Shown here one piece after another: positions 20,600-50,455 of a DNA stretch of 64,000 nt; within the stretch, counting starts at the first letter, position 1; each line of letters begins with the position of its first letter. The position numbers and the translations under genes were made by a program. The stretch comes from Opitutales bacterium. Lineage in GTDB: Bacteria; Verrucomicrobiota; Verrucomicrobiia; Opitutales; UBA2987. The stretch is taken from NCBI GenBank assembly GCA_965226885.1, contig CBDDEL010000016.1, positions 320,001 to 384,000 of the forward strand, given 5' to 3'. The notes beneath the pieces are model-generated. The model saw only the letters and a list, made by a program, of their open reading frames with translations. It was not told the DNA's origin and made no database searches.

Positions 20600-20726
20600 A
20601 GTTTGGCACTTTTTGGGCTGTTTTATACGGTTCGCATGGGGCTGGCACCCTTTCTTTGTCAACATACGGGGTTTTGCAATGAGGTTTGGCACTTTTACAG
20701 TGTCAATGCGTAGATTGGGCGAAGGC
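20600..20726 (-). repeat. Conserved downstream arm of cassette platform, copy 1
   Basis: Minus strand ...GCCTTCGCCCAATCTACGCATTGACACTGTAAAAGTGCC...TGCAAAACCCCGTA...GCCAAACT aligns by eye with 50315-50455 and partly with 42601-42680. Confidence 0.75.
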
Positions 20727-20785
20727 CGTTAACGCTCAAGCTCAGTGGCGCGCGTCAGCACGTCCACTGGAGCGCCTTGTTATGT
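20727..20785 (-). other. Integron attC site (59 bp)
   Basis: ACATAAC-AAGGCGCTCCAGTGG...CCACTGAGCTTGAGC-GTTAACG. R'' ACATAAC is the exact complement of the cassette start GTTATGT at 22564-22570. Confidence 0.88.
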
Positions 20786-20902
20786 GATCGATCTCTGACA
20801 CAATACATCGTACGATAACAACGCCATTTATCCAATCCGCTTTTGAAATGGTTAGCATTTAAAACAATGTTTCGAACTTGAACGCGTTCACCCCGGCCCT
20901 AT

Positions 20903-22477
20903 CTACCGGATGTAATGCGGGACCGTGATGTTGTTCCCCGAACCGTCCGTAGTGAGCGTATAGCCGCCGGCAACCCATTGCAGTGGGTTGGAACCGGATC
21001 GGCGTGAAGTGTTGTAGTCGCCCCAACGCGTCACGGACCTGGTACTCAAGGTCGGATAGTAGACAACGAAGTCGCCCCATACACCCACCGCATGGTTACC
21101 GTGATAGGGGCCGCCGCCAAACGCGACGGACATGCCGAGTTCACCCCCGGAATTGGTGGACAGAAATGCATCCTGGAAAGCAAAGCCGGGATTCCAAATC
21201 TGGACCTGCTCCTGAAAGGCAAAGTTCGAGGCATTAAGGCGAACCATTTGAACGTGCGGATGCGGAAAACCGCCGCCACTTCCTGCCTGCCAGGCGAACC
21301 ACACGTTCGTTAAGTCCTGCAACGCATTTCCATAGATGTAGGTGGTGATACCGCCTTCCCACTGCATCCAATCCGTACCGTCCGGAGTGATCGATGACTC
21401 CGAACCGTTCGGCCAACTGTTGATGTTGACGGTTCGCCAATAATAGGAATTGTCACCATCCGGCCAATTGTAGACGCGCAGCTGGCTGGTATCGACGTGA
21501 CCCGCCCAATAGACTTGATTGTTGGGGTTTTGTGTAATGTGCGAGAAGATCGCATTGGTCCCCCATCGCATTGGTCCCCCCTGTGTACCGATAGTTCACG
21601 GTCGCGCGCCTGGCAAGCTGATCAAGTGGTAGCCGGACGACGATCCGTCCGCCCGCGATCATGCTCGTCCAGTAGAGGGATTTCGACTCGCGGTCATGTC
21701 GTTGTAGTCGAGGGATCCTAGCGCACTGAACACATTGCTGGGGAAGTCCCAATACGTCCATGCGGTGCCGTTGGAGCTACGGACGCCTTCAGTCGATTCC
21801 ACGGCGACGCGAATGCGGTTGTCATTGGTGCCATCGCCGCCCTTCGCGCTCCGATACTGCATCAGCCACACGAACAAATCGTACTGCGGCACGTACAGGA
21901 CGATTTGGTCGCAGCAAAGACCGCCATCATCCTGCGGAAAGACCGTCGTCGGATTGATATATGTGAAGGTTCCCCCGGCATCTTCAGAAAACGCCATCCA
22001 TGTATTGCCAGTCATGATGATCGTTTCGCCGTTCTCTGCGACACTCACTTCACCAAGGCTGCCAATATTGGGAAGAACATCGTCAACTTCGGCATAATCG
22101 TCGAAATCAAGTTCCTGGGAAGGCTCTTCGTCTTTGGCTGCTATCTTGATCGCCGGATTTTTCGGCTCGATGTCCCCTCTTAGCGGCCCGACCGGAATCG
22201 GCGGGAAATTGATGTGTTCCTCATTCGGTATGAAGGTAGACTCGATGACGGGCTCCACTGGCGGATACGGCGCGCCTTCGGTGCGTTTGGGATCGATGGC
22301 CCCGCCCTTGCTCTCCTCGCGAACTTCTGGGCCGACCACTCCTATCCCATCATCGGGCTTTCCGATATCCCGATCACATGCACAAACGAAAAACCAGTAC
22401 AGCAGGCCTACGAGGAAAAGCGCGGCAACCAACGCTAGAATCGCCAAGGCACCATGCAGTATTGATTTCATATTCAC
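20903..22477 (-). pseudogene. Cassette-borne membrane-anchored/secreted hypothetical protein, two frameshifts
   Basis: ORFs 21659..22477, 21453..21761 and 20903..21571 join into one protein (GLCCDQIVLY...RWGDY). The second frameshift is a 16-bp duplication at 21549-21580. Confidence 0.75.
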
Positions 22478-22563
22478 TCCCCCTGCTGTTCACGTACGAA
22501 CAGGCAATACATTTGAAAATTCCAACATGTATTCCTTGCTATACATAACATATAGTAGGCTAT

Positions 22564-22719
22564 ACATAACATATAGTAGGTAGCGTCTACGCGGCCTGTG
22601 ATTGGGTACGATAAAAATTTTGGCGAAATTTGCAAGAAAATTTTTAATTTTTTGGCAGAGAAGAGGCTTATTAGGTTTTCCCTAATTTATTGCCAATTTT
22701 TAGCGATGCGTGGGTGCTG
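22564..22719 (-). promoter_or_regulatory. attI-like site plus conserved upstream arm with Pc-like promoter, copy 1
   Basis: ...TTGCAA-16nt-TATCGT...GCGTAGACGCTACCTACTATAT-GTTATGT. Aligns over ~150 bp with 48645-48800. The crossover region is tandemly duplicated (21 bp, 22539-22580). Confidence 0.75.
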
Positions 22720-22777
22720 AAGGTGTGCTATTCATCACCTAGCCAAAGAAAAAGGAATGAAACCCCTTCAGGGTTTT

Positions 22778-24909
22778 GGTAGTGTATAAAAAAGAATGTT
22801 ATTTTGTATTTTTAGCTGTACAAATAGCGTTAGGCAGTTTATTCTTAGTGCATGGTTACTAAAATTATTAATTGTCGGCACTGTGGAAGTGAAAATATCA
22901 TTAAATTTGGCAAGACGCCCAACCATAAACAGCGCTACCGCTGCCATGATTGTGGTAAACAAAGCCGCGAAAACCCCACAGTGAAATACACCGAAGAGCA
23001 AAAAGAAATGATCCTTCGAGTCTATCAGGAACGCAGCAGTCTACGCGGTTTACAGCGCGCCTTCGGGGTGAGTCCCAACACCGTTTTGAGTTGGTTAAAA
23101 AAAACGACAATCGCTGCGACCGCTCAAAAGCACGATTCTTGCGGCCCGCCGCCATGATGTCATTGAACTGGACGAACTGTGGTCTTTTGTGGGGCGCAAG
23201 AGCGATGCCCAATGGGTTTGGATCGCTCTTTGCCGACGCACCCGTCAAATCCTCTCCTATGCCATTGGGCCTCGGGATTGGTATCGTTGCCGGGAACTTT
23301 ACGAGCGTCTGCCACGGGCCTACAAAAGATGTGCCACCTACAGCGACTTTTGGAGCACTTATGATGAAGTCTTTCCTCATAACCGATGACGTGTACTGGA
23401 TTTGTTGGACACGGGATTCTCTTATATTCATTGTTTATTGATTAGTGTGTCAGGCGGCTTGTTTTGGTAAAGGGTTTTGTTTTCTCGTTGCCCCCCATGG
23501 GGGGCAAATATTTTCCTCGAATTGGACTGGGCTTTGGTAACTCAGAGAGGAATGTTTGCGATATCGGTTGTAGAAGATTTCCACGTATTCGAAGACAGTT
23601 GATCGCAGTTCGCGCTCGTCGGCAAAGTGGCGGCCTCGAATCGTGCTGGTCTTGAAGCGGCCGTAGAACGATTCCATGGCCGCGTTGTCGTAGCAGTTGC
23701 CTTGGGCGCTCATGCTCGGCTTCATGCCTAGTTCAGAGACCAGCCTCTGATAGTCGTCGCTGGCGTAGGGGCTGCCCCGATCGCTGTGATGAATAATCCC
23801 GGTGCGCAGTGTGCCGCGGGTCATGGCCGCGGCTTTGAGGGCCTTGCCAACCAGCTTCGCGTCGTTGTGGTTGGAAACGCTCCAGCCCAGCAGGCGTCGG
23901 CTGAACAGGTCCATCACCGTGGCCAAGTACATCCAACCGGCCAGGGTCCGTAGGTAGGTCGTGTCCGCCACCCAGACCTCGTCGATATGGGTCGGCTGGC
24001 CATGCTTTTTAAGCACATTGGGGCTGTAACCATAGGGATGGTTACTGTTGGTTTTTAATGGCTTAAAGCGTTTACTCTGGGTGCTTTTGATTCCCATTTC
24101 ACGCATCAGACGCAGAGCCCGGTCACGGCCGCAATCGATGCCCTCATCATCCTTCAGATGGCGGTGCATTGGCCGATGCCCATAGCGGCCCTTGGCCTCT
24201 TTGTGTACCTTCAGGATCGCCCCCTTGATTCCCTCGTCCTCGATCCGCCGGGCCGAGGGCGCTCGGTGCCTCCAGCAGTAATAGCCACTGCGACAAATCC
24301 CCATCGCCGAGCATATTTCCTCGATCTTGAAGCGCCCCTCGTTGTCTTTGACAAACTGGTACTTCATTGTTCGTCCTTGGCAAAGTAGCCCACCGTTTTT
24401 TTTAGTATCTGGTTGATCCGCTCCGAGCGGCGCAGCTCTTTGCGAAGACGATCTATCTCGGCCGCCATCTCCTTCGGACTGCTCTGTCGCTTTGAGGTGG
24501 CTTCGCCCTGCTGATCGTCCAGATAGAGCCTCTTCCACCTATACAATTGGTTGGTGTTGACCCCAAGTTTGGTCGATACCTCGGTGGCGCTCAGACCATC
24601 GAGTATCATCAGTTGAACTGCCTCATTTTTGAACTCTATACTAAAGCGTCTTCTTCCCATGCTTCGATTCTCCATTTAGGAGAATCTCGTGTCCACTTTT
24701 TCCAGTGCACATCACGATCCGTGGGAAAAGAAACCGGTGAAACGGCCCATGTGGAACGATGGAACAATACCCTGCGCCAACGACTGGGTCGTTTCACACG
24801 CAAGACCCTCTCCTTTTCCAAGCTTAAGAGTATGCATGAAACCTGTCTGAGACTTTTCATTCATCAATATAATCAAGAATTAGCCACCATTCCTACTTAA
24901 TACACTACC
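22778..24909 (+). mobile_element. IS1-family element type a, copy 1 (insA/insB), interrupted by IS3
   Basis: IRs GGTAGTGTAT / ATACACTACC with 8-bp TSD AGGGTTTT. InsA zinc ribbon (CRHCGS...YRCHDCG), A-run frameshift motif, InsB ELDELW...[12 protein letters not shown]. Confidence 0.95.
23387..24714 (-). mobile_element. IS3-family element type a, copy 1 (orfA 24364..24675, orfB ending 23450)
   Basis: TG...CA ends with 3-bp TSD CGA. rve DDE motifs WVADTTY, HHSDRGSPY, DNAAMESFY. Confidence 0.95.
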
Positions 24910-25009
24910 AGGGTTTTCATATATTAATCATAGGTCCAAGTGTCCAGAGGTTGCACTCCTGGCTGGCGAATAGAGCACCTTCAGGGCAGTGTACTAAACA
25001 TTGGCCTGT

Positions 25010-26726
25010 TTATACATCAGCCTCCTCCACATACGTCACGTTAAAGAAGAGATGGTCGCGGAGGTCCAGTCGGATCCTCTCTGCTACCTTCATTGCACTG
25101 AGTGTGCGAATACTCTCAGCAGCTGTCCTTTGACAGTATTCCGACCATTGTTCCGTTTTACTACGCACTATCGTTGAAGTGGACGGGGTTGTTTGGACAA
25201 TTTTGACGTGGGATTAAGGTGGAAATCGTGTTCATATTATTTTTTAAAAATATATTTTGTCCTTAGCCAAAGACGGGCACGCAGGTGCCCGCAAGCTGTA
25301 TTGGCGGGGAGGGTGGTTTTGCTCCGATTGCATGGACTTCGGCCGGGGTCCGGTAGCCCAGGGCTTGGTGGGGGCGCAGGTGGTTGTAGAAGTCCAGGTA
25401 GCGGGCTATCCCTTCGCTGGCTTCCTTTGCCGTGGCGTATTCGCGCAGGTAAATGTCTTCATACTTGAGGGTTCTCCAAAAGCGTTCAACAAATATGTTG
25501 TCCAGGTAGCGGCCACGCCCGTCCATGCTGATGCGCACCCCGGCTTGCCCCAGCACCGAGGTGAACTCGCTGCCGGTAAACTGGCTGCCTTGATCGGTGT
25601 TGAAGATTTGAGGTTGGGCCCGCCTCAGAGCTTCCTCCAGGGCGAGCACACAGAAGCGGCTCTCCAGGGTGTTGGAAAGCTGCCAGCTCAACACGTAGCG
25701 GCTGAACCAGTCCAACACCACGGTCAAGAAAAGGAATCCTCGGCTCAGCCGCAGGTAAGTGATGTCGCTGCACCATACCTGGTCGGGCCGCTCGACCGCC
25801 AAACCCCGCAGCAGATAAGGGAAAATGCGGTGCTGCCGGTGCCCCTGGCTCAAGTTTCGACGCGGATAAATAGCCTCCAGGCCCATTTGGCGCATGAGCC
25901 GCTGGATGCGGCCTCGTCCCACTGCATGGCCCTCTCGACGCAGCCACTGGGTCATCCGGCGAGAACCAAAAAACGGATATTGGGTGTAGAGCTCATCCAT
26001 GCGATGCATGTAGAGAACGTTCTGCTCGCACTGGGCACGGGCCCGATAGTAATAGCTGCCGCGGGCCAGCCCCAGCAACTGACATTGCCTGCCGATACTG
26101 ATTTTTCCTTGAAGTGGTTGCACCATCTTGCGCCTCTCACCAACCGAATTGTTCAGACTTTTTTTTTAGCCAATCGCATTCTACTTTCAGCTTTCCAATC
26201 TCCTGGTAAAGGTGATCTTTTTCCGTCTCGTTGTCCTTGCTGAGAGTCTGCCGCTGGCGCGAAAACAGCTCCGTTGCTCCCTGCAAAAGCTGCTTCTTCC
26301 ATTGGGTCACCTGGTTGGGATGCACCTCAAAACGACCGGCGATCTCGTTGATGGTATGAGCGCCCCTGATGGCTTCCAGGGCCACTCGGGCTTTAAACTC
26401 AGCACTGTATTGTCTTCTCTTTCGTGATTTAATAACATTCATAGGTTAGCGGATTTAGTGGTTCAAGACCACCTTATTCCACTGTCCAGTTTTCCCCGTC
26501 CATTTCACGTATCCCATGACCATACTCCTGGGGGCTCGTCCCTCGAACTCGGGATCACTCCTATGATACCGTCATCAATCACGACCCAGACTTCTCCACC
26601 TAGAATCGCTTGCCCGGAGTCTGCGATTGCCTGGAGCGCAAATATAACATCCGCTCTTCGCCATGCGTACTCTCCATCTGCATCCTTAAACGCGGAGGCT
26701 TTAACTTGTTTCGGGAGGTCGCTCAT
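25010..26726 (-). pseudogene. Imm40-like immunity protein gene split by IS3 type b
   Basis: Removing the IS and one CGT restores MSDLPKQ...AILGGEVW...WSWDT-IVRSKTEQWSEYCQR...FFNVTYVEEADV*. The family is guessed from the ILGG(D/E)V motif. Confidence 0.65.
25175..26507 (-). mobile_element. IS3-family element type b (orfA 26137..26442, orfB 25263..26126)
   Basis: IRs TGAAGTGGACGGGG / CCCCGTCCATTTCA with TSD CGT. A9G frameshift signal. WCSDITY, NTDQGSQFT, DNIFVERFW. Confidence 0.95.
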
Positions 26727-26778
26727 GTATGTCGATAACTCATTATTGAGGGTACTTTTGTGATATTTGCGGACCCCT

Positions 26779-27372: not shown

Positions 27373-27414
27373 ACTGGTATTCCGGGAATGTTATGAGGCC
27401 AGTGGAAGTTTTCC

Positions 27415-28509
27415 TTATTCCTCGCCGCCCGGATTGAGAATTTCCTGGATTTTTGCCTCCCGGTCGGAGGTTTGCAGGGCCTCCAGCAACTCCGCGATTT
27501 CCCCGTCCATAAATTGGGGCAGGCTGTGCAGGGAAAAACCGATGCGGTGGTCCGTGACCCGGCTCTGGGGGAAGTTGTAAGTGCGTATACGCTCCGAGCG
27601 ATCGCCCGTACCGACCTGGCTTTTGCGGTCTGCCGCATATTTGGCCCGCTCCTCTTCTTCCTTCGCTTTGAGGAGCCTGGCCCGGAGCACTTTGAGGGCT
27701 TTATTCTTGTTCTTCAACTGCGACCGCTCATCCGCGCAGGTAACCGTTATGTTGGTCGGCAAATGGGTTATCTGGACGGCCGAATCCGTGGTATTGACGC
27801 TTTGGCCGCCCGGTCCGCTGGCCCGGCAAACGGTGATTTCGAGATCATTGGGGTCGATCTGCACATCCACTTCTTCGGCTTCCGGCAACACCGCCACGGT
27901 GGCGGCGGATGTATGGATGCGCCCGTTGGTTTCCGTAACCGGTATGCGCTGCACCCGGTGCACCCCGCTTTCAAATTTGAGGGATTTGTAGGCCTCCTCT
28001 CCGGTGACCAAAAAAACCACCTGTTTGAACCCGCCGCTTTCCGATTCGCTGGCCCCCAGGGGCTCGATCTTCCAGCCCCGGTTTTCCACGAACCGACAAT
28101 ACATACGATAAAGATCGGCCGCGAACAGGCTGGCCTCATCCCCTCCCGTGCCGGCCCGAATTTCCATCACCGTATTGCGTGAATCTGAAGAATCCGGGGG
28201 AATCAAGGCGGTCAGGATTACCTGGCGCAAGTCCTCCAGTTGCTCCTCCAAAGCGGGAATTTCTTCCCTGGCCAGAGCGGCAAACTCTTCCTCGCTCTCG
28301 GGATCGCTGATAATGGCACGGTGTTCGGCCAACTCTCCCTGCACCTCGATCGAGCGTTCATGCGCCTCCAAAAGGCGGTTCAACTTCTGATGTTCGCGGG
28401 AAAGTCTGGCCACTTTGCGCTGGTCTTGAAAAAAATCAGGCTGCGCCATGAGCGCATCGATTTCCGCGAAGCGCCTCCGAAAAGGAGAAATATCCGGAAG
28501 ATTTTCCAT
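27415..28509 (-). CDS. prfA: Peptide chain release factor 1
   Basis: [21 protein letters not shown] (PxT), SGPGGQSVN (GGQ), IRTYNFPQ. Confidence 0.96.
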
Positions 28510-28621
28510 TATTGAATCACTTTTGAATATATTCGCTAAAGTTGCCTCCCAGCGGCAAGCCAATATACGGACAATTTGTCCATCTTTAAATCGGTAGGGC
28601 CGGGAGCAAAACCGATCCGGG

Positions 28622-30079: not shown

Positions 30080-30188
30080 CTGATATTGGGGTATGGCTCC
30101 GAACAGCGTGAATTTAAAGCCAAATCGAATTTTCTTCCTTCTTCCTCTTTGTAATCGACTGTCGGTTTGGAATACCTAAACTTAAAAA

Positions 30189-30389
30189 ATGAAAATCGAG
30201 ATCGAACAGGAGGATGATGGACGGTGGATAGCTGAAGTTTCTGATCTCCCAGGTGTCATGGTGTATGCTGAAGATAGGGAGCAGGCCATTGCGAAGGTGG
30301 AAGCGCTTGCACTCAGAACCATTGCTGACCGCCTCGAACACGGGGAGGACATTCCTGATCTTAACGGCGTGTTTTCCATTGTCACATGA
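30189..30389 (+). CDS. hicB: HicB-family antitoxin (short form)
   Basis: IEQEDDGRWIAEVSDLPGVMVYA. Confidence 0.85.
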   Translation: MKIEIEQEDDGRWIAEVSDLPGVMVYAEDREQAIAKVEALALRTIADRLEHGEDIPDLNGVFSIVT

Positions 30390-30601
30390 GCCAATGGGGA
30401 TCTGCTAAGGCTCGAATTGTTTTGCGGGCGCTATTGCGCATCGGATGGCAGATTAAACGGTCACGGTCTGGATCTCACAAGATTTTATCAAAAGAGGGAT
30501 GGCCCGATTATGTATTCTCCTTCCATGACGGTGAAGAATTAGGTCCAAGAATGTTGGCCCGAATCGCTAAGAAGACGGGACTGAATCCCGAAGATTTATG
30601 A
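30386..30601 (+). CDS. hicA: HicA-family mRNA interferase toxin
   Basis: LLRIGW...SGSHKIL...FHDGEELGPRMLARIAKKTGL. ATGA overlap with hicB. Confidence 0.85.
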   Translation: MSQWGSAKARIVLRALLRIGWQIKRSRSGSHKILSKEGWPDYVFSFHDGEELGPRMLARIAKKTGLNPEDL

Positions 30602-30894
30602 ACAATTTGCTTTGCATACATCCTGGTGAACATCTTCTTGAGGATTTTCTCAAGCCTCACGGTATTACACAGTATCGTTTAGCCAAGGATATTGGCGTTT
30701 CGGCGATGCGGATACATGAAATCATTAAAGGCAAGCGGGCCATAACAGCCGATACGGCGTTGCGGCTGGGCAAGTATTTCGGTACTACTGCACGGATATG
30801 GATGCGCCTGCAAGCACGCTACGATTTGGAAAAGGCGCAGCTTGCAGTCGGCAAAAAAATAGAGGAAGAGGTGCCGGCGTTAAACTCGGTTTAG
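30598..30894 (+). CDS. higA: HigA-family HTH antitoxin (no adjacent HigB)
   Basis: IHPGEHLLEDFL...RAITADTALRLGKYFGT...WMRLQARYDL. Confidence 0.88.
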   Translation: MNNLLCIHPGEHLLEDFLKPHGITQYRLAKDIGVSAMRIHEIIKGKRAITADTALRLGKYFGTTARIWMRLQARYDLEKAQLAVGKKIEEEVPALNSV

Positions 30895-35164: not shown

Positions 35165-35223
35165 GCAAAACGCCCAAGACCAGATGCGCGATTTATCGCG
35201 TTACCTGCTACGATTTGTTAGGC
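35165..35223 (-). other. Integron attC site (59 bp)
   Basis: GCCTAAC-AAATCGTAGCAGGTAACGCGATAAATCGCGCATCTGGTCTTGGGC-GTTTTGC. The gene stop lies inside R''. TTGCCTAA is complementary to the cassette start TTAGGCAA at 35813-35820. Confidence 0.75.
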
Positions 35224-35809
35224 AATCCCACAATAATTTACAGCACCAATTGTTTCCGAGCAGAGGCCATATCCTTTCGCCTCATAGACTTCGAAGCATG
35301 CTGCGACGACTGGAACGGGTAGCTCCAACTCATTTGCGATTTCTTTTCCGTTTAGCTGCTGACCAATTTTGCATTCATCCAGGATTCTCGAAAAAGATTC
35401 CATTCTTTCACTGTTTTCATATAGGTGAAGGTGACAGAGGTACATCATGAATGACGGATCGGATAGCCAAATAGCCAATGGAAGATGCCTTCCCAATGTG
35501 CCTTCCCAATGCATGGTCACACCGAATTAGCCTCATTGCCGCCAATGTTGCAATGGGTCTACTGAAGTTCTCATAGAATTCGTCCTCAAATACGAGCTTG
35601 ATGTAGTTCGCTCGTTTCAACTCTTCATAGAGATGCTTAGATAATTCTGGTACGTCATCATGAAGAAAACTGATTGGATCCTCCAACCTACGAATGCGAT
35701 CAGAAAATTCCTTTGCATCAAGCTCTCCCTGTAGCTGAACAAGAGACGAAGCCCCAGGGAAAGAGGCTCCAGCGATACGGATCATGGAGAAAAACCAGTT
35801 TTTTTTCAT
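35218..35809 (-). pseudogene. Cassette-borne hypothetical protein, frameshifted by a 13-bp duplication
   Basis: MKKNWFFSMIR... joins ...LGRHLPLAIWLSDPSF...NYCGIA* when TGCCTTCCCAATG (35486-35511) is collapsed. Confidence 0.75.
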
Positions 35810-35814
35810 TTCTT

Positions 35815-35841
35815 GCCTAATATATTTCAGGCAGCGTCTAG
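35815..35841 (-). promoter_or_regulatory. attI-like site remnant, copy 4 (upstream arm replaced by IS1380)
   Basis: Minus strand TAGACGCTGCCTGAAATAT-ATTAGGC matches the last ~25 bp of the other platform copies. The crossover G reads A. Confidence 0.65.
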
Positions 35842-37469
35842 CCCGGATATTTCGTAAAAAAAGTATCGTTGATATGCTTAACTGCTGATATACAGCAGGA
35901 TAGATCAATAATTAAAGCAATATCAGCGATGACAAAAGGTAAACAATTAAAGCTACAGTTGACAAGGGTAAAAGGCCGCCGTGTGCGGGTTGATTTCAAG
36001 GGCGGAGAGGTTACTTCGGATGCCGGACTGCTTTTGATCCGGGAAGTGGATCGGCAGTTGGGCTTGACCGAACGAGCGGCCCGACAGTTAGTGGACAAAC
36101 GGCAGAAGGGCAAAGTACGCCATGAGGTATTGGGGATGCTGCGGCAGCGCGTTTACGGGCTGGTGGCGGGCTATGAGGATTTGAACGACTTTGATACCCT
36201 GCGCCACGATCCATTGTTAGCAAACGGTAACGGGGCGCATTGAAACGTTGGCCAGCGCGCCGACTTTGTGTCGTTTTGAAAACGGGCAGGATCGGCGGGC
36301 GGCCTTTGCGGTAAACGAGCTGTTGGTCGAACAGTTCATGGGCTCCTTTGCCGAGGAACCCGAAGAGATCATCCTGGACTTTGACGCCACCGACACTCCG
36401 GTGCACGGGCTCCAGGAGGGACGTTTTTTCCACGGTTATTATGATCATTACTGTTTTCTGCCGCTATATGTTTTTTGCGGTGATCAGCTGCTGGTGGCCT
36501 ACCTGCGGCCGAGCAAGATCGATGCCAGCAAGCATGCCGGGGCCATCCTCAAATTGCTGGTTAAACGGATTCGCCAAAGCTGGCCCCGTACGCGGATTAT
36601 TTGGCGCGCCGACAGTGGATTTTGTCGAGACCGGATACTCTCTTGGTGCGACCGCAACGAAGTTAGTTACATCGTGGGGATGGCTCGCAATGCACGCTTG
36701 CAGCAAGACGCCCAGCAGTTGCAAAAGCAGGCCAAAGAATGGTTCGAACTAAGGGGTAAAAAACAACGGTTATTCCAGGACTTCGTCTATGCTGCCGATT
36801 CGTGGCGATGGCTGCGGTTGGTCATCCATAAAGCCGAACACACCGCACAGGGGTCCAACCCGCGCTTCGTGGTGACGAACCTGCCGGGCGATCCCCAGGA
36901 GCTTTACGACAAGGTATACTGTGGCCGCGGTGAAATGGAGAACCGCAACTGTGGCCGCGGTGAAATGGAGAACCGCAACTGTGGCCGCGGTGAAATGGAG
37001 AACCGCATCAAGGAACAGATGCAATTGTTCAGCGAGCGCACCAGCGCCCATCAATGGTGGGCCAATCAGTGGCGATTGCTCTTGTCGGCGCTGGCCTACA
37101 CCTTGATGGAAGCCATGCGCCGGTTAGCCTTAAAAGGGACGAAGTGGGCGCGGGCCCAATGGCACACCCTGCGGCTCAAATTAATCAAGATCGGAGCGGT
37201 CATCGTGCGCAACACCCGAACGATTCACTTTCACCTAAGTGAGAGTTATCCTTGGGCCAGTCTTTTCAACCATGCGGCCCGCCGATTGGTGCCAACCTAA
37301 AGGGTGCATTGGTGCTGCCCCCGGCACTACCGAACCAATGGGGGAAAGGGGGCAGTGTCTCTACACCCTGAAAAACACCTAAAAATCAAGACGATCTGCT
37401 CAAAATACAAAGAAATCCATCTCCAATAGCAATAACGAGCCAAACTTTACCCTTCATGAAATATCCGGG
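35842..37469 (+). mobile_element. IS1380-family element copy 3 (frameshifted, internal 30-bp triplication, mismatched flanks)
   Basis: +1 base near 36219. ACTGTGGCCGCGGTGAAATGGAGAACCGCA x3 at 36918-37007. Flanks are CTAG and CTAA. Confidence 0.95.
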
Positions 37470-39833: not shown

Positions 39834-39960
39834 CAATCTCCCAAATTCTGACTCCAAAATCCAATATTATACCTCTGCCCCATCCAGCATCCAGTATCCT
39901 TCTCCATATCCCCAGTGCGCCCGTGAGAAAAACCACAGATCAGACAGATAAACGCAGATA

Positions 39961-40094
39961 AAAAAGCAATAATTCGCGGAATCCTGATAAAACCCTTCTC
40001 AACCAAGAAATTGACAACGCAATTGTAAATTTCGGTCAAAATTTTACCGTATCCTATCATTCGTTACGTGGACGCTGCCTATAATATGTTAAAT
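39961..40094 (+). promoter_or_regulatory. attI-like site plus upstream arm, copy 3
   Basis: ...CTTCTCAACCAAGAAATT...TTGTAA-16nt-TACCGT...ACGTGGACGCTGCCTATAATAT-GTTAAAT, then RBS AGGAG and ATG at 40117. Confidence 0.72.
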
Positions 40095-40116
40095 GAAATA
40101 CAAGGAGTGAATATCT

Positions 40117-40878
40117 ATGAGTAAATCGCCAATTGTGTTGTTCGCATTCGCGCTCTGCAGTATGGGCTGCACGTTGTTGACACAACTGACGGAAGCAAAC
40201 ACAGGACAACACCCACAGTCATTCAAGGCAGAGATAACGAAAACACTACGAGCAAACTACTTGCTGTATATCCCTGACCAATATCCAACTTCGCTGAAAG
40301 AGTGGCCGCTTATTTTGTTTCTTCATGGCTCAGGAGAACGCGGTAGCGACTTGAGTAAGGTTGAAGATCACGGTATACTGAAGCTTATTGCCAAAGAGGG
40401 AAAGCATTTCCCTTTTGTCATTGCTTCTCCTCAATGTCCAAAGAATAGTTTTTGGGACAACGAATTACAGATCGATATACTGAGTGGGATTTTGGATGAT
40501 GTTCTTTCACAATACCGCATCGACAAAGATAAAATATACGTCACGGGACTCAGTATAGGTGGTTTCGGCACCTGGGGCATTGCCGAAGCGTATCCCAATA
40601 GATTTGCTGGGATCGCGCCAATCTGTGGCGGCGGGGATCCCGAAAATGCAGAAAGTATCGCCCATTTGCCGATATGGGTTTTCCATGGAGCGAATGACCC
40701 AAGAGTGCCCCTTAGGAGATCCGAGGAAATGGTCACTGCTTTGCAAAAGGCTGGCAGCAAAGTCAAATTTACTGTCTATCCTGATACCGGACATAACGCC
40801 TGGACTGAAACGTATAACAATCCCGATCTATATGAATGGTTTCTGAAACATTCTCGCCAACCTATAGAATCAGAGTAG
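40117..40878 (+). CDS. Secreted alpha/beta hydrolase (predicted peptidase/esterase), cassette-like
   Basis: PLILFLHGSGERG, SPQCP, YVTGLSIGG (GxSxG), WVFHGAND, GHNAW. Confidence 0.88.
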   Translation: MSKSPIVLFAFALCSMGCTLLTQLTEANTGQHPQSFKAEITKTLRANYLLYIPDQYPTSLKEWPLILFLHGSGERGSDLSKVEDHGILKLIAKEGKHFPFVIASPQCPKNSFWDNELQIDILSGILDDVLSQYRIDKDKIYVTGLSIGGFGTWGIAEAYPNRFAGIAPICGGGDPENAESIAHLPIWVFHGANDPRVPLRRSEEMVTALQKAGSKVKFTVYPDTGHNAWTETYNNPDLYEWFLKHSRQPIESE

Positions 40879-40997
40879 TGAAAAATCCACCAAACAAGCC
40901 GGAAGCAGACAATGGCTTGTAGCCGCGATATTCATCCTCCAGCCATTTTGACTAGAACCTATCCCCTCCCAACCCGCGCAAGGATCGACGGAGTTAG

Positions 40998-42578: not shown

Positions 42579-42600
42579 TTAGGCAAAAAATCACCGAGCA

Positions 42601-43147: not shown

Positions 43148-44752
43148 GGTAGTGTTAACATGACGAATGTTTGATATTGCTGTTGTATTCCCAGATGAAC
43201 AAGCACAGGACGCGAAAATGCATGACCAAAGACTTCGAGAATGACAGCGTTTTACGCACATAGCGTGACAGGGACTGTCGCAAGGTATTGTTCCAGCGTT
43301 CGATATGGGCGGTTTGGCCGGATTGTTTCCCGCTGGCGCTGTTGTGAGGGAAAACCTTGTCGTAGCTTTCCCAGTAATCGCTTACGGTGGCACAGTCGCG
43401 ATAGGGCTGGGCGATGTTGTGATACAACTGCCGGTAGTGTATTAAGTAGGAATGGTGGCTAATTCTTGATTATATTGATGAATGAAAAGTCTCAGACAGG
43501 TTTCATGCATACTCTTAAGCTTGGAAAAGGAGAGGGTTTTGCGTGTGAAACGACCCAGTCGTTGGCGCAGGGTATTGTTCCATCGTTCCACATGGGCCGT
43601 TTCACCGGTTTCTTTTCCCACGGATCGGTTATGAGGAAAGACTTCATCATAAGTGCTCCAAAAGTCGCTGTAGGTGGCACATCTTTTGTAGGCCCGTGGC
43701 AGACGCTCGTAAAGTTCCCGGCAACGATATCAATCCCGAGGCCCAATGGCATAGGAGAGGATTTGACGGGTGCGTCGGCAAAGAGCGATCCAAACCCATT
43801 GGGCATCGCTCTTGCGCCCCACAAAAGATCACAGTTCGTCCAGTTCAATGACATCATGGCGGCGGGCCGCAAGAATCGTGCTTTTGAGCGGTCGCAGCGA
43901 TTGTCGTTTTTTTTAACCAACTCAAAACGGTGTTGGGACTCACCCCGAAGGCGCGCTGTAAACCGCGTAGACTGCTGCGTTCCTGATAGACTCGAAGGAT
44001 CATTTCTTTTTGCTCTTCGGTGTATTTCACTGTGGGGTTTTCGCGGCTTTGTTTACCACAATCATGGCAGCGGTAGCGCTGTTTATGGTTGGGCGTCTTG
44101 CCAAATTTAATGATATTTTCACTTCCACAGTGCCGACAATTAATAATTTTAGTAACCATGCACTAAAAATAAACTGCCTAACGCTATTTGTACAGCTAAA
44201 AATACAAAATAACATTCTTTTTTTATACACTACCCAACTGCCAGCACGTTTGATCGCTACGATCACCCAGAGAAAACCCGACGACCTGTCGGGTACGTCG
44301 ACACAAGGCTACCCATAGCCATACCTGCCCCGAACGCTTATCGCCCCAGAATGACCACACCTCGTCCAGTTCCAGCACATCACTACACTGGCGGGCAAGC
44401 AGAGTGGACTCCAGCTTCGGCAAACTCAGGACTTTTTTTAATCCATTCGATGACCGTCTTTGGGGCTACCCCGAAGGTACGGTAAATGGCACGCAGGCTC
44501 ATCCGGTTTTGGTGCGCACGGAGCACCTGCTTGACCAGCGCCGGAGGATGCTCACGACTTTTGGGGTGAAGCCGAAACTGATAACCACACCCCTTGCATC
44601 GATACTTCTGAACCCCTTTCGGATCCTTGCCGTGCTTGATGATGTGATCGCTTCCGCATTGAGGACATTTTACTGTGATATGGACCATTCCCAGTTCACA
44701 ACATAATCACGCTAAAAAGTACAGCTTAAACATTCAAAATGTTAACACTACC
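43148..44752 (-). mobile_element. IS1-family element type b, interrupted by IS1 type a
   Basis: IRs GGTAGTGTTAACA / TGTTAACACTACC with TSD AGTAATTG. InsA CPQCGS...YRCKGCG, InsB ELDEVW...[11 protein letters not shown]. Confidence 0.93.
43433..44234 (-). mobile_element. IS1 type a copy 4
   Basis: 802 bp, TSD CAACTGCC. Confidence 0.95.
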
Positions 44753-47203
44753 AGTAATTGCAGGTACGTCAAGGTTTAGGGTTTGGGAGTTGGTTTTGGG
44801 GATTGGCTTGGGGTCGGTGAGGAGGCCGGAGGCCGACGAGCCGGGCCCAAGGCGTTTATTGTTTTGTGCCACGGCGACGGCGTCGAGCATCGCGCAAGCG
44901 GTAGCTTTGCCCGTTGGCTTCGAGGATATGCACCCGATGGGTGAGTCGGTCCAGCAGAGCTCCGGTGAGCCGTTCGGAACCGAGCACTTCGATCCAGTTC
45001 TCAAAGGGCAGGTTGGTGGTGACGATGAGACTGGTGCGCTCGTAAGCGCGGCTGACCACGTCGAAGAGCAGTTCGGAACCGGTCTTGGAAAAAGGGACGT
45101 AACCGAGTTCGTCGAGGATGAGTAGGTCGAGCCTTTCGAGTTGCTTCATGAAGCGCTGCAGGTCGTGGTTGTCGCGTTGCTCGAGCATATGGGTAACCAG
45201 GGCGGTGACCCCGAAGAAACGGATCCGCCGGCCCTGGGCACAGGCGGCAAAGCCCAGGGCGGTGGCCAGGTGCGTTTTACCGGTACCGGCGTTACCGAGG
45301 AGCAGCACGTTTTCGCGCTGGTCGACATACTCCCCGCGCATGAGCTCTCGGATGAGCGCTTCGTTGATCGAGGGCTGCGCTTCAAAGGCGAAGCTCTCGA
45401 GGGTCTTGAGCACGGGGAAACGGGCGTTTTTGATCCGCCGCTGGGCGGCCCGCTGTTCGCGTTCAATGAGCTCCCGTTCGACCAGATGCAACAAAAAGGC
45501 GGCGTAATCGAGCCGGTCCCGGGAACAAGCCGCGGCCACCGCCGGCCATTCGCGCAGGATGGTGGGCAACTTCAGTTTCTTGAGGTGATGGTGTAACAGC
45601 AGCTGGTTTTTTTCTTCCTTCATAAAGCCCCTCCTGGAATCTTGAGCAGTTCGCTGTAGGCACCGAGGTCAGGGGCGGCCACACGGACGTGACGCAGGTG
45701 TGGATGGCCGTCCAGCCGGAAGGTTCTGCTCCCGTAGTCTTCCTGAGGATAGAGATACTGGGCGATGGCCTCACGAGTCAGTCCCCCCACCCGCAGGGCC
45801 GAGACGACGGCCTGCTGCAAGGCCGCCATGGGGTGTTTCTCCAACAGCCGCAGCACCCGGATATACTCCCGGGTGCCTTCGCCCCCGCATTGGCTTTCGA
45901 GCCGGCGTCTGAGGACCTGCAGGCACTGCGGCAACTGCCAGCCCGAGAGTGGGCGGGCGAAGTCCAAAGCGCCCGGTTTTTTCTCCAGCAAAGCCAGGTA
46001 GTGCACCGGCTCGAAAGAGACTTGCTCTTTATCCCAAATGCGGCGGTGCCGGGCCACCTCTTGGCCCCCACAGAAGATCACCACCTGCCGACAGGACCCT
46101 TCCACCACCACCGGATGGTGGGCGCAGCGCACCGGCACCGAATAGTCGTTGCACTCGAAGCGCACCAGCGAGAGGCTGCTGACGCAGGTCGAGCGTTTGC
46201 GGCTCGCTTCAAAGGGTATGGGCGGCAACGCCAGCATGACGGCGCGCTCCTCGGCCAGCAGTTCCTTTTTCACCGCCCTTTTCCCGCGTAATTTACGCTC
46301 CATGTCCCGCTCACATGCCTCCAACAGCTTTGCGTTGAGTTCCTCCAGGTCCCGAACCTGCGGTACCGGTACCAGGAAGTTGGCCCGGGCATAACGCACG
46401 ATCCCCTCGACCACGCCCTTCTCGTTGGGCCGGGCGGGCAGACAGAAGTGTTCCTCGAACAGGTAATGGCTCTGTAGCTGCAGAAACCCGTCGGTCAGCT
46501 TGCGTTCACGCGAACCGATAATCTTACCCACCGCCACCTTCGAGTTGTCATAGCTGATGCGCCGGGGCACCGCCCCGAAAAACTCAAAAGCTCGCAGGTG
46601 CCCCTCCCAGAAGCTCTCCGTGCACTCCCGTTCGAACACCTGCACGAAAAAGGCATCGCTGTAGGGCAGGCTCATGGCAAAAAATGGCCGCCTACGCAAT
46701 TGCCCCGCCTCCTTCACCAGGGCATGACCGAAGTCCACCTGTCCCTCCCCGGGGCGGTGCTCCAGCGGCACGAACACTTCCCGCCGCCTCGCTCGCAGCT
46801 CGGCCACCACCTCCTTGACCGCCGTGTAGCCCCCTTGGTAGCCCTTCTCCCGACCCAAACGCTGGTAGATCCGTTTGGCCGTATGGCGCTGCTTCTTGGG
46901 CACGTTCCGGTCCGCTTTGAGCACCTCCTCGATCCAGCCCACATACGGATCGATCTTGCGCTCTCGCCTCTTCTTGCGCCGGTATCCCGGCGGCTGGGAA
47001 TAGGCCAGCATCTTTCCCAGGGTCTCCCAGTGCAGTCCCTCTTCTCGCATTACAGAGCGCTTGCTCTGCTTGTCCCGCAGCACTTTGTGCCGCACTCTTG
47101 TCCATTGCTTCATATCTCGATACACTCCTCCTTTCTAGGATAAGCGTACCGGTTTTAAAGCGCCCTCTTTACCGTACCGGTTTTTCCCCGGCGTTTACAA
47201 TAG

Positions 47204-48546
47204 TGACGTGTACTGGATTTGTTGGACACGGGATTCTCTTATATTCATTGTTTATTGATTAGTGTGTCAGGCGGCTTGTTTTGGTAAAGGGTTTTGTTTT
47301 CTCGTTGCCCCCCATGGGGGGCAAATATTTTCCTCGAATTGGACTGGGCTTTGGTAACTCAGAGAGGAATGTTTGCGATATCGGTTGTAGAAGATTTCCA
47401 CGTATTCGAAGACAGTTGATCGCAGTTCGCGCTCGTCGGCAAAGTGGCGGCCTCGAATCGTGCTGGTCTTGAAGCGGCCGTAGAACGATTCCATGGCCGC
47501 GTTGTCGTAGCAGTTGCCTTGGGCGCTCATGCTCGGCTTCATGCCTAGTTCAGAGACCAGCCTCTGATAGTCGTCGCTGGCGTAGGGGCTGCCCCGATCG
47601 CTGTGATGAATAATCCCGGTGCGCAGTGTGCCGCGGGTCATGGCCGCGGCTTTGAGGGCCTTGCCAACCAGCTTCGCGTCGTTGTGGTTGGAAACGCTCC
47701 AGCCCAGCAGGCGTCGGCTGAACAGGTCCATCACCGTGGCCAAGTACATCCAACCGGCCAGGGTCCGTAGGTAGGTCGTGTCCGCCACCCAGACCTCGTC
47801 GATATGGGTCGGCTGGCCATGCTTTTTAAGCACATTGGGGCTGTAACCATAGGGATGGTTACTGTTGGTTTTTAATGGCTTAAAGCGTTTACTCTGGGTG
47901 CTTTTGATTCCCATTTCACGCATCAGACGCAGAGCCCGGTCACGGCCGCAATCGATGCCCTCATCATCCTTCAGATGGCGGTGCATTGGCCGATGCCCAT
48001 AGCGGCCCTTGGCCTCTTTGTGTACCTTCAGGATCGCCCCCTTGATTCCCTCGTCCTCGATCCGCCGGGCCGAGGGCGCTCGGTGCCTCCAGCAGTAATA
48101 GCCACTGCGACAAATCCCCATCGCCGAGCATATTTCCTCGATCTTGAAGCGCCCCTCGTTGTCTTTGACAAACTGGTACTTCATTGTTCGTCCTTGGCAA
48201 AGTAGCCCACCGTTTTTTTTAGTATCTGGTTGATCCGCTCCGAGCGGCGCAGCTCTTTGCGAAGACGATCTATCTCGGCCGCCATCTCCTTCGGACTGCT
48301 CTGTCGCTTTGAGGTGGCTTCGCCCTGCTGATCGTCCAGATAGAGCCTCTTCCACCTATACAATTGGTTGGTGTTGACCCCAAGTTTGGTCGATACCTCG
48401 GTGGCGCTCAGACCATCGAGTATCATCAGTTGAACTGCCTCATTTTTGAACTCTATACTAAAGCGTCTTCTTCCCATGCGTCTTCTTCCCATGCTTCGAT
48501 TCTCCATTTAGGAGAATCTCGTGTCCACTTTTTCCAGTGCACATCA
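47204..48546 (-). mobile_element. IS3 type a copy 2, inserted inside the IS21 target duplication
   Basis: ATAG duplication. A 15-bp tandem duplication at 48463-48492 gives MGRRRMGRRR. Confidence 0.95.
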
Positions 48547-48644
48547 ATAGTGCTCAAACCCCATTTCAAAACCCGACAGGTACCAAAACGATGCGTCTAC
48601 GCATCTAATTAAAATTTTATGCAGCGTTTTTGTACCATTTTATG

Positions 48645-48800
48645 CAGCGACCACGCATCATTAAAAATTGGCGGTTAATTACGGAAAACGGATTCAGCCT
48701 CTTCTCAGCCAAGGAATTACAAATTCACTTGCAAATTTCGCCAAAAATTTTATGGTAATCAATCACTGGCTGCGTAGGCGCTGCCTACAATATGTTGGGC
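48645..48800 (+). promoter_or_regulatory. attI-like site plus upstream arm, copy 2
   Basis: CAGCGACCACGCATC...TTGCAA-16nt-TATGGT...GCGTAGGCGCTGCCTACAATAT-GTTGGGC. Confidence 0.78.
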
Positions 48801-48816
48801 TGAGGAAACAAGAAGC

Positions 48817-49203
48817 ATGATAGAACCTCTATTCCAGAAAGTGGATTGCATCAGCCTTCCGGTGAAAGACCTGGAAGGAGCGCTTGAATTCTATCATGAT
48901 AAACTGGGGCACAGTCTCGCCTGGCGCACTGACAGCGAAGCAGGGCTTGACTTTGCTGATGGCAGCGTTGAATTGGTGCTCCGCCTCAATAATAATCCAC
49001 CTGAAACAGACATCATGGTGGAATCAGCGATTAAGGCTGCGAAACGATTCGAGAAGGCAGGCGGTTCGGTTGTTGCTGGGCCGTTTGATATTAAGATCGG
49101 AAAATGTGTCGTCGTAAAAGACCCTTGGGGAAATCACCTTGTTCTGCTTGATTCCAGCAAAGGTCTTCTAAAAACGGACGAAGAGGGCTATGTCGTCTCT
49201 TAG
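48817..49203 (+). CDS. VOC/glyoxalase-family protein (gene cassette)
   Basis: ISLPVKDLEGALEFYHDKLG...GGSVVAGPFDIKIGKCVVVKDPWGN. Bounded by GTTGGGC and an attC. Confidence 0.88.
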   Translation: MIEPLFQKVDCISLPVKDLEGALEFYHDKLGHSLAWRTDSEAGLDFADGSVELVLRLNNNPPETDIMVESAIKAAKRFEKAGGSVVAGPFDIKIGKCVVVKDPWGNHLVLLDSSKGLLKTDEEGYVVS

Positions 49204-49211
49204 CTGATGCA

Positions 49212-49265
49212 GCCCAACAAATCATTTGAGCCGAAGCATTCGCCCGGCTCAATTCGACGTTATGC
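49212..49265 (+). other. Integron attC site (54 bp)
   Basis: GCCCAAC-AAATCAT-TTGAGCCG...CGGCTCAA-TTCGAC-GTTATGC. CAGCCCAAC is the exact complement of the cassette start GTTGGGCTG. Confidence 0.85.
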
Positions 49266-49301
49266 CATCTTGATAGACCCACAAATGGGAAGGACACTTC
49301 A

Positions 49302-50246
49302 ATGAAGAAAATTCAGTTTTTCATACTTACTTGCGCCTTTGCGGCCCTGATTTTTTTCCAAACAGCAACGGCACAACGACCGCCGATCATCGACGTGCAT
49401 CTGCACTCCTACCGAGCGGAGAGTTTTTCCGGACCCTTGCCCCCTAATTCGGTGACCGGCGTGATGCCTGCGGCGACGACACCCAAGGAGAACATGCAGG
49501 CAACGTTGACGCAGCTGGAGAAATTCAACATTGTGCTTGGCATCGTCAGCGGGCCCCTGGATTCGGTAGATGCGTGGCATCAGGCGGCTCCTGACCGGAT
49601 CATTGCTGGGGCCTATGAGGGCCCGCGAGGCATCCTGCCGGATGTGGCGGTCCTACGCGAATCCTTTGAGTCCGGTCGCCTCCAGGTGATGGGTGAACTG
49701 GGGCTCCAATACCGCGGCCTAACGCCCAACGAATCGCGTCTAAAACCCTACTTTCGTTTGGCTGAGGAATTAAGCATCCCTGTTGCCATTCACACTGGCC
49801 TTGCTGCACCAAATACGCCCTACAAATCGTGCTGTCCTGATTTCCGAGTAACGCTGGGCAATCCAGAGCTTGTGGAGGAGGTGCTGGTCCGGCATCCGAA
49901 GCCCCGTGTTTACCTTATGCACGCCGGACATCCCTACCTGCAAGAGACGAAGGCCATCATGTCTATGTACCCGCAGGTCTACGCCGACCTCGCAGTTATC
50001 AATTGGGTCTTGCCGCGAAAGGAGTTCCACAACCATCTGAAGGCGCTGATTGACGGCGGCTACGGCAAGCGGCTGATGTTCGGCTCAGATTCACAGCTGT
50101 GGCCGGAAGCTATAGAAATGGCCATCCAAGGCATTGAGTCGGCAGAGTTTCTGACAGAGGAGCAAAAACGGGACATCTTCTACAATAATGCAGCGCGGTT
50201 TCTGCGATTGACTAAGGAGACAATTGCTAAACATCATGGTCAGTAA
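49302..50246 (+). CDS. Secreted amidohydrolase-family metallohydrolase (gene cassette)
   Basis: Signal peptide, IIDVHLH, GELGLQY, AIHTG, LMHAG, LMFGSD, IFYNNAARFL. Confidence 0.88.
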   Translation: MKKIQFFILTCAFAALIFFQTATAQRPPIIDVHLHSYRAESFSGPLPPNSVTGVMPAATTPKENMQATLTQLEKFNIVLGIVSGPLDSVDAWHQAAPDRIIAGAYEGPRGILPDVAVLRESFESGRLQVMGELGLQYRGLTPNESRLKPYFRLAEELSIPVAIHTGLAAPNTPYKSCCPDFRVTLGNPELVEEVLVRHPKPRVYLMHAGHPYLQETKAIMSMYPQVYADLAVINWVLPRKEFHNHLKALIDGGYGKRLMFGSDSQLWPEAIEMAIQGIESAEFLTEEQKRDIFYNNAARFLRLTKETIAKHHGQ

Positions 50247-50262
50247 TGAACATGGAGAGCCG

Positions 50263-50314
50263 GCCTAACAAGCCGACGTCGCTTCGCGGCGCAGCTTATC
50301 GTGAAACGTTAACG
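50263..50314 (+). other. Integron attC site, apparently internally deleted (52 bp)
   Basis: GCCTAAC-AAGCCGACGTCGCTTCGCGGCGCAGCTT-ATCGTGAAAC-GTTAACG. The spacer between R'' and L'' appears lost. Confidence 0.65.
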
Positions 50315-50455
50315 CCCCTCGCTTGACCTAAGCATTGACACCGTATTAGTGCTCAACCCCCTATGCAAAACCCCGTAAATCGCTAAAGAAAAAGCATCAA
50401 ATCCGGCGCGAACACGTTAAAAAGCACCAATTCACGTCAAACTCGGCTTCCCCCC
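50315..50455 (+). repeat. Conserved downstream arm of cassette platform, copy 2
   Basis: CCCCTCGCTTGACCTAAGCATTGACACCGTATTAGTGCTC...TGCAAAACCCCGTA...GTCAAACTC aligns with 20600-20726 (minus). Confidence 0.75.

Follow-up and report, generated by a model that had tools for sequence, protein, structure and literature searches.

Dispersed attI-like repeats at the head of integrase-less gene cassettes in an Opitutales genus

In the textbook view an integron consists of a single integrase, a single attI and a single array; integrase-less clusters of attC sites are common. How, then, should we read gene cassettes that have no integrase gene beside them and are headed, at several places on a chromosome, by the same repeat? 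The question is raised by a 64-kb stretch of DNA from an Opitutales bacterium (assembly GCA_965226885.1, contig CBDDEL010000016.1), which we call the window (G000:C16:320001-384000). Its source genome, G000, is a 5.48-Mb draft in 17 contigs with ~52% G+C. A first-pass annotation, made from the window alone, had described an upstream (left, L) arm that recurs before unrelated cassettes and a downstream (right, R) arm that follows some of them, and had proposed a multi-copy landing site serviced by an integrase acting in trans. The best-supported reading, and in our judgment the probable one, is a distributed multi-attI integron, in which paralogues of the attI region without an adjacent integrase are serviced from elsewhere.

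The L arm family and the attI region of the genome

The three L arms that had been reported at 22564-22719 (minus strand), 39961-40094 (plus strand) and 48645-48800 (plus strand) do align at these positions, with 71-82% pairwise identity in BLASTN, and the truncated copy reported at 35815-35841 (minus strand) is a remnant cut by an IS4-type insertion sequence (IS) element (Table 1). The statement that similarity ends at GTT likewise holds, with the break at G|TT in all three arms. Outside the window, a first nhmmer profile built from four copies gave 29 matches at E<=0.003 genome-wide. A profile of 18 copies of the main subfamily then gave 24 matches at E<=2e-7, and a profile of the two copies that we call integrase-type gave 14 at E<=3e-7, including C15:160977-161150 at E 3.5e-55. 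Together these make ~38 L arms in G000; the best genome-wide E-values for arms reach 1e-49, and the family is far above chance. Copies at C10:232k, C14:631k and C12:385k were found by both profiles and bridge the subfamilies.

The family has well-defined ends. Similarity among the arms, which are 110-220 bp long as a repeat, stops at the same G|TT in dozens of copies. In the 26 copies where the junction can be placed, the sequence 3' of it differs in nearly all, and the first seven bases after the crossover mostly fit GTTRRRY. The left boundary recurs in 13 full-length copies from four genomes. A palindrome, ATGCGT-N2-ACGCAT, stands at the left boundary of both subfamilies (window 48590-48605; G000:C10 ~135320-135340; many other left ends), and its ACGCAT half-site recurs in R arms ~25 nt after G|TT; to judge by its position, it may be a protein-binding or boundary site. 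By eye, no terminal inverted repeats or target duplications were seen at the outer L and R ends. Upstream, the neighbors of arms are unrelated genes or IS elements and not open reading frames (ORFs) of cassettes. Downstream, a co-oriented ORF of at least 50 amino acids starts within 200 nt at 23 of the 26 junctions. A purine-rich stretch often precedes the ORF, and in a few cases the ORF is that of an IS element. We also considered the arm as a long attC resembling the Vibrio cholerae repeat and rejected this, given the lack of an end-to-end fold (z -0.7 to -1.8), of R''/R' pairing and of any match to our attC model.

Does this repeat belong to an integron? A search of the whole genome with TIGR02249 found a single intI, on contig C10, in two pieces (model positions 1-156 and 155-312) that lie ~2.5 kb apart, with IS21 istA/istB encoded in the insert that splits them. 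The halves score 188.7 and 229.7 bits, each below the cut-off of 265 bits, which is set for a whole protein; the C-terminal half fits the integron model over ~75 residues outside the coverage of Xer models. At E<=1e-3 the same search gave no second intI or remnant in G000; its other matches are Xer-like, and none lies beside an arm. The window itself has no tyrosine recombinase, as had been claimed: 0 of its 78 ORFs carry PF00589, TIGR02249 has no match there, and the nearest tyrosine-recombinase matches on the contig are >200 kb away. Relatives of the IntI among genome contigs are at most 60% identical to it and come from many phyla.

The G|TT of the integrase-adjacent site lies 237 bp from the intI start codon, and the stretch leading to it aligns block for block with the arm family. 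This attI region is at least 90% identical to the copies at C15:161k and C17:646k over ~215 bp. Against the 400 bp upstream of intI, the main-subfamily profile gave a match of E 1.2e-4 in the correct orientation, ending 5 nt from G|TT; the link between the main subfamily and attI rests on this targeted test together with the bridging copies. As judged from these alignments, the two subfamilies of arms and the real attI region belong to a single family, and we regard an arm as an attI-type site because it is homologous to the region beside the only intI. The idea of a dispersed, multi-copy landing site thus stands, with no intI or remnant beside the copies.

Two of the copies, C15:161k and C17:646k, share a unit of 465 bp at 92% identity, including a common left part unrelated to intI, while the integrase-adjacent copy has only the last ~215 bp of this unit, up to 24 bp from the intI start codon. 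Since the unit is common to two copies without intI, an integrase-less unit must itself have been copied. At C15:161k, astB ends exactly where the unit starts; just beyond the C17:646k copy lies an IS630-type element.

In both subfamilies, -35-like and -10-like hexamers occupy one conserved position, ~45-75 nt ahead of G|TT. Their position, together with the co-orientation of the genes behind the arms, suggests that the arm holds a cassette promoter. In two species (G000:C16:903896-904800; G004:C28), lexA is divergent from an arm and ~100 bp away. Integron integrases are classically LexA-controlled, and this adjacency may or may not be chance.

Cassettes, attC sites and the R arm

Fifteen arms head one or two cassettes that end in a hairpin attC. 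These attC sites were recognized with a covariance model that we built from ten sites (six from this genome, four from relatives), each preceded by an arm and followed by an R arm or by another cassette, with the R and L stems given as structure. The model is derived from this genus and is not equivalent to the IntegronFinder model. A regex attC finder had no match in the window, its pattern being too strict (the terminal R' here is GTTAACG); Rfam at gathering thresholds matched tRNA only, with no attC family among the matches; and an energy-only hairpin scan proved unspecific and was dropped in favor of the covariance model. RNAalifold predicts the L stem of the seeds unaided, and 8 of the 9 pairs that it predicts show compensatory changes. 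Run on both strands of 44 sources (405 kb), the model found 21 sites at E<=1, 11 of them non-seeds; each of the 21 has an arm upstream of it on the same strand.

The junctions of the cassettes are of the kind expected from integrase-mediated joining. Among 14 first cassettes, the R'' box of the attC is complementary to the cassette start at 7/7 positions in eight, 6/7 in four, 5/7 in one and 4/7 in one; counting C15:161k, the match is full in 9 of 15. Three of the seven bases of the box are fixed, which makes the chance of a full match ~1/256 for each cassette. The complementarity that the first-pass annotation had seen at three window loci is confirmed at 7/7 for A, 7/7 for C and 6/7 for D. 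Because cassettes each start at G|TT with their own R'' complement, each was presumably inserted by an integrase at some arm. Of three attC sites tested for folding, C1 and A exceed shuffled controls in stability, and C1 pairs end to end as a hairpin; C2 is not distinct from its controls (z 0.33).

Cassettes are 384-1816 bp long, and most of the loci examined hold one or two. C15:161k, the best integrase-type paralogue, has an array that looks longer: its first attC is a 91-nt hairpin (-25.9 kcal/mol) with R'' 7/7, and the co-oriented genes encode an alpha/beta hydrolase, an SNF-family transporter, a GH43 enzyme with a second attC, and a GNAT protein.

After the last attC, some loci continue with the R arm, which is ~110-118 bp long and starts with GTTAACG or a close variant. 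It is complete at four G000 loci (A, C, C10:227k and C16:903k, the last starting GTTACCA) and partial at two (C14:583k and B), and it closes at least five loci in relatives. Comparison with relatives places its end. At the site orthologous to locus A, G001 and G002 have no platform, only 80 and 127 bp, and in G003 a GNAT gene abuts the flank; from this we conclude that the repeat part ends ~110-118 bp after G|TT and that the rest is local flank. The first-pass annotation was thus right in placing GTTAACG and a common downstream arm at two window loci, A and C, and somewhat too long in its estimate of ~130 bp. The third locus said to keep part of this arm is B (~35 bp before the IS element) and not D. 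The claim of an L plus R pad of ~300 bp fits a subset of loci, with the R arm at only 6 of ~38 platforms in G000.

Table 1. L arms, cassettes, attC sites and R arms in the window (window coordinates)
Feature	Position	Strand	Remarks
Locus A, L arm, attI-like	22550..22719	-	nhmmer E 8.5e-46; crossover G at 22549 or 22570
Locus A, cassette A	20786..22549	-	secreted-looking gene, no Pfam family; cassette length 1816 bp
Locus A, attC of cassette A	20727..20785	-	61 bits, model seed; R'' 7/7 to cassette start; R' = GTTAACG
Locus A, R arm proper	20616..20733	-	beyond ~20616, local flank
Locus B, L arm	39942..40090	+	nhmmer E 4.2e-34; crossover G at 40088
Locus B, cassette B	40088..40993	+	alpha/beta hydrolase (40117-40878), decayed attC uncalled by model, first ~35 bp of R arm
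Locus C, L arm	48575..48796	+	nhmmer E 1.9e-49; core 48645-48796; crossover G at 48794
Locus C, cassette C1	48794..49265	+	glyoxalase-family gene (48817-49203); attC 49212-49265 (seed); R'' 7/7
Locus C, cassette C2	49259..50314	+	amidohydrolase_2 gene (49302-50246); attC 50263-50314 (seed); R'' 6/7; R' = GTTAACG
Locus C, R arm	50308..50425	+	followed by tRNA-Tyr at 50584-50669
Locus D, L-arm remnant	35815..35841	-	last 27 bp of arm; IS4-type element cuts arm; crossover base A, not G; E 0.083 genome-wide
Locus D, cassette D	35165..35814	-	ORF within 35417-35908, no family; attC 35165-35223, non-seed, 40.6 bits, E 5.6e-07

The window loci show wear of several kinds. At locus A the junction of arm and cassette lies within a perfect 21-bp tandem duplication (22529-22549 and 22550-22570), and a second, short tandem duplication near 21553-21580 appears to have split the cassette gene into two ORFs (21659-22477 and 20903-21571). 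An IS4-type element cuts the R arm of locus B at 40994, and no R arm follows the cassette at locus D. The extended left part of the arm at locus C is common to G003:C107.

Cassette turnover and the competing explanations

Is the arm a peculiarity of one genome? We searched four other genomes of the genus (G001-G004), all metagenome-assembled genomes (MAGs) that are 81-93% complete. A 101-bp arm query gave 4, 8, 13 and 13 BLASTN matches in them; 36 genomes of the order from outside the genus gave none. The arms are thus a dispersed family in relatives as well, and R and L arms pair there at distances of at least 740 bp.

The relatives also show that cassettes change at these sites. At four locus pairs of G000 and G004 the arm (80-84% identity) and the flank (87-93%) are homologous and the cassette between them is unrelated. 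These are the lexA side, the peptidase-M20 side, the GntR-gene side and an adenosine-deaminase/sulfotransferase locus. The cassette-side flank is kept in three of the four, the lexA pair keeping the lexA-side flank only; in the adenosine-deaminase/sulfotransferase pair the first cassette differs and the second, a sulfotransferase cassette, is conserved. Since there is no room for an integrase gene between the housekeeping gene and the arm in either species, the exchange would have taken place at integrase-less pads, and it is on this exchange that our case for action in trans chiefly depends. G001 and G002 have no arm next to lexA, which shows gain or loss of pads within the genus. Pads also recombine with one another, as chimeric loci indicate: in G000 C16:903k the lexA side corresponds to that of G004:C28 and the GntR-gene side to that of G004:C27:366k, and the G000 C12:273k locus joins halves found on two G004 contigs.

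Public reads give a view of locus C. Six runs match half or more of its sampled words, and no RNA run was found to match the locus. Contigs of four of the six reproduce, piece by piece, the order L-C1-C2-R, and the contigs of these four runs contain no joint by which a cassette is bypassed. In each of the four, one or two contigs with 3-6 differences in the arm diverge exactly after 48796 into different sequences, one of them continuing into the tautomerase cassette of C16:903k. These contigs are paralogues and not alleles. One public run has an 8-bp insertion in attC C1.

Altogether, we envisage the following mechanism. The arms would be paralogous copies of the integron's own attI region, probably with a cassette promoter, scattered over the chromosome. 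An integrase encoded elsewhere would join the folded attC of a circular cassette to the G|TT at the end of an arm, which would set a promoterless gene 10-75 nt downstream of the arm and push the R arm, formerly the right-hand neighbor of the crossover point, to the end of a one- or two-cassette array. The genus would thus operate a distributed integron, with ~38 pads in G000 and 4-13 detected per relative, and not one long array. Which integrase acted, and that it acted in trans, we infer from these sequence comparisons. The earlier proposal of servicing in trans gains indirect support from the unrelated cassettes at orthologous integrase-less platforms; the part that requires an available integrase is less well served, with the only intI split by IS21 and none detected in relatives. 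On a more tentative level, the module of attI and promoter, with its right arm, could be a self-multiplying unit, of which the genus runs dozens of small, separately expressed pads that exchange cassettes while the trans integrase is repeatedly lost and perhaps regained; we hold this as a possibility that may well fail.

Several results weigh against a distributed integron. The only intI of G000 is interrupted, which makes it doubtful that the system is active at present. The four relatives gave no IntI-specific match; with MAGs only 81-93% complete this absence is not proven, and an integrase there could be unassembled or on a plasmid. (A 269-amino-acid recombinase on G003:C311 was examined as a candidate IntI and rejected: it is 29% identical to the N-terminal half of IntI, matches a XerA-type model best and falls below the TIGR02249 cut-off.) Genome-wide, the main-subfamily profile gives the integrase-adjacent copy only E 1.7, which is not significant alone. 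The proposed promoter fits 8 of 12 hexamer positions by our own count, and a sigma-70 scan with a threshold of 9 of 12 makes no call. Most arms have no detected attC, with only 14 sites at E<=1 in the genome-wide run of the attC model (150 of 925 candidates scored), and integron loci from two other phyla yielded no match to this model. Several arms head ordinary-looking genes without attC (PCMT, 2-hydroxyacid dehydrogenase, PQQ dehydrogenase), and many are cut by IS elements within ~1 kb of the junction, so that the description of platforms each loaded with different cassettes suits some arms and not all. The predicted empty form of the pad did not turn up: no R-arm match abuts an L arm in the five genomes, and no empty L|R allele occurs in these or in the contigs of the four runs. 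Nor did we see insertion or excision polymorphism at pads in the same material. Finally, the cassette differences at orthologous pads could stem in part from homologous recombination between pads.

Could the arms instead be the debris of many classical integrons, each once with intI beside it and later deleted, without any trans servicing or pad multiplication? This is the main rival, and we consider it unlikely without dismissing it. The copies at C15:161k and C17:646k, which follow the real platform almost to the intI start codon, are what such deletions would leave, the IS630-type element beyond one of them and the IS-laden genome favor deletion in general, and extra copies of the region upstream of intI exist in a Planctomycetota MAG and a Desulfobacterales MAG. 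However, ~38 copies without a second intI or remnant in G000, and without an IntI-specific match in four relatives, are hard to obtain in this way. Debris would also not be expected to give a recurrent left boundary in 13 full-length copies from four genomes, a 465-bp unit whose non-intI left part was itself copied, or cassette content that differs between species at orthologous integrase-less pads. The comparison with other phyla is instructive here. We searched three other genomes for copies of their own integrase-proximal ~290 bp and found two extra copies in the Planctomycetota MAG, two partial ones in the Desulfobacterales MAG, each with 5' intI remnants, and none in the third genome. Orphan attI-side copies thus exist elsewhere at low number, and one case is plain integron debris; what is unusual in this genus is the copy number, the lack of remnants, the recurrent boundaries, the common right arm and the conservation across the genus.

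It is less probable still that the pads are real attI relics whose cassette diversity arose by homologous recombination between paralogous arms or arrays, with no trans integrase involved. The chimeric loci C16:903k and C12:273k, which join halves from separate G004 loci, are precisely of this kind, but arms that are only 70-85% identical over ~150 bp make a poor substrate for homologous recombination, the cassettes each begin exactly at G|TT with their own R'' complement, and one pair differs in the first of two cassettes only. Very improbable, and disfavored, is the view that the arm is merely the common promoter or 5' leader of a regulon, or that cassettes entered unrelated attG-type sites with incidental similarity to one another. 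One may cite for it the co-oriented ORFs behind 23 of 26 arms, the arms before housekeeping-type genes without attC, and the insertion of cassettes by IntI1-3 at genomic GWT sites, with expression near a resident promoter, as described in a preprint (bioRxiv 10.1101/2022.09.11.507474). It would leave unexplained why similarity breaks at the same G|TT in dozens of copies, why the arm is homologous to the integrase-adjacent attI and why a common R arm follows the last attC, and the attG model has recipient sites that are mutually unrelated. The outcomes that the first-pass annotation had named as damaging to a distributed integron did not arise: the arms align significantly, all but the integrase-adjacent copy lie away from intI, and the attC candidates score with the self-built model.

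Relation to known systems and further observations

How does this architecture compare with known integrons? Like a classical integron, it has apparent recombination at G|TT, cassettes of ~0.4-1.8 kb with hairpin attC sites, R'' pairing, co-oriented genes and a TIGR02249-type integrase in the genome. Yet classical integrons (intI-Pc-attI-array, whether of mobile classes 1-3 or sedentary chromosomal) have one attI, whereas here there are ~38 attI-type sites, all but one without an integrase beside them; arrays mostly hold one or two cassettes, a conserved right arm ends some of them, and the integrase is IS-disrupted or, in relatives, undetected. The window loci are not complete integrons in the sense of IntegronFinder, with the sole intI on C10. 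They do have an apparent attI-type G|TT crossover at the head of the array, as homology and the similarity break suggest, and attC cassettes recognized by the self-built model, compensatory pairs and R'' matches.

Operationally, the window loci belong with clusters of attC sites lacking integrases (CALINs) and single attC sites lacking integrases (SALINs), which have attC and no intI within several kb: locus C, with two attC sites, is a CALIN, and loci A and D, with one each, are SALINs. CALINs (Cury et al. 2016, PMC4889954) and SALINs (bioRxiv 10.1101/2022.09.11.507474) are defined without attI, whereas each element here is headed by a recognizable paralogue of the attI region. The former paper reports that attI is unknown for most integrons, and hence cannot be searched for, and that 95% of CALINs have no nearby intI pseudogene. 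The latter preprint (Loot et al.) also describes attG insertions, which resemble our loci in placing cassettes outside the integron proper, at GWT, and in expressing them only with an upstream promoter. The attG sites described there are ~18 nt long, unlike attI in sequence and structure, and form no repeat family, whereas the recipient here is a 110-220-bp repeat homologous to attI. In Xanthomonas, degenerate chromosomal integrons are likewise genus-wide and ancestral, with an integrase that is often inactivated (bioRxiv 10.1101/2025.06.18.660453); that platform is single and at a fixed place downstream of ilvD, in contrast to the dozens of dispersed attI copies here. That preprint also states that CALINs can be mobilized in trans. 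The proposed distributed multi-attI architecture would be a variant of the integron; like the first-pass annotation, we found no earlier description of it in the literature, subscription journals and supplements not being covered.

Integrase-less cassettes headed by copies of the attI region are present in every genome of the genus that we searched, and they offer a concrete, testable model for cassette insertion. If the putative promoter is real, it would account for cassette expression at many chromosomal places at once. A general check follows from this work, namely to search the heads of CALINs and SALINs for paralogues of the integrase-proximal attI region of the same genome; current tools have no such check because attI sequences are unknown for most integrons. 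If the reading of multiplying pads should prove true, many CALINs and SALINs in other phyla may have unrecognized attI heads and may be neither debris nor random insertions.

Four or five of the 14 genome-wide attC sites have no arm within ~2 kb. Four such attC-like sites, at C15:568813-568876, C14:54744-54803, C11:323690-323748 and C9:43684-43741 (E 6e-5 to 3e-3), may be true SALINs located elsewhere or may stand behind arms too diverged for detection. Some platforms are compound. On G003:C406:1-1902, a full arm and two cassettes with attC (R'' 6/7 and 7/7) are followed by a shorter second arm core ending in G|TT and by another gene. G000:C16:633089-633980 carries two arms in the same orientation ~800 bp apart, one of the main subfamily and one integrase-type. 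The arm at G000:C10:279524-281341 is interrupted after model position 45 by an insert of ~1.65 kb that holds a small ORF, an attC (E 6e-4) and a gene for a 246-amino-acid membrane protein; the 3' part of the arm is then met almost immediately by IS1.

The window is crowded with IS1, IS3, IS4-type, IS630 and IS21 elements. One segment of ~1.3 kb, which lies beside two arms and is 99% identical between species, was suspected as a servicing element and rejected as an ordinary IS with at least 40 copies. It is an IS3-family element (window 25175-26507, 1333 bp) with at least 40 near-identical copies in each of G000 and G004, 99-100% identical between the two genomes, whose remaining shared sequence is only 87-93% identical. 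Three perfect 30-bp tandem repeats (window 36918-37007) lie within one IS4-type copy, apparently against a single unit in the other copies. A HicA toxin gene adjoins a gene for an Xre-type helix-turn-helix protein in a toxin-antitoxin-like arrangement (window 30386-30894), immediately ahead of an IS4-type element. Lastly, prfA (27415-28563) and prmC (19236-20093) lie ~7 kb apart in the window, and the interval from an extracytoplasmic function (ECF) sigma gene to the prmC side differs in four of four species, being 80 bp, 127 bp, a GNAT gene, or a platform with IS elements.

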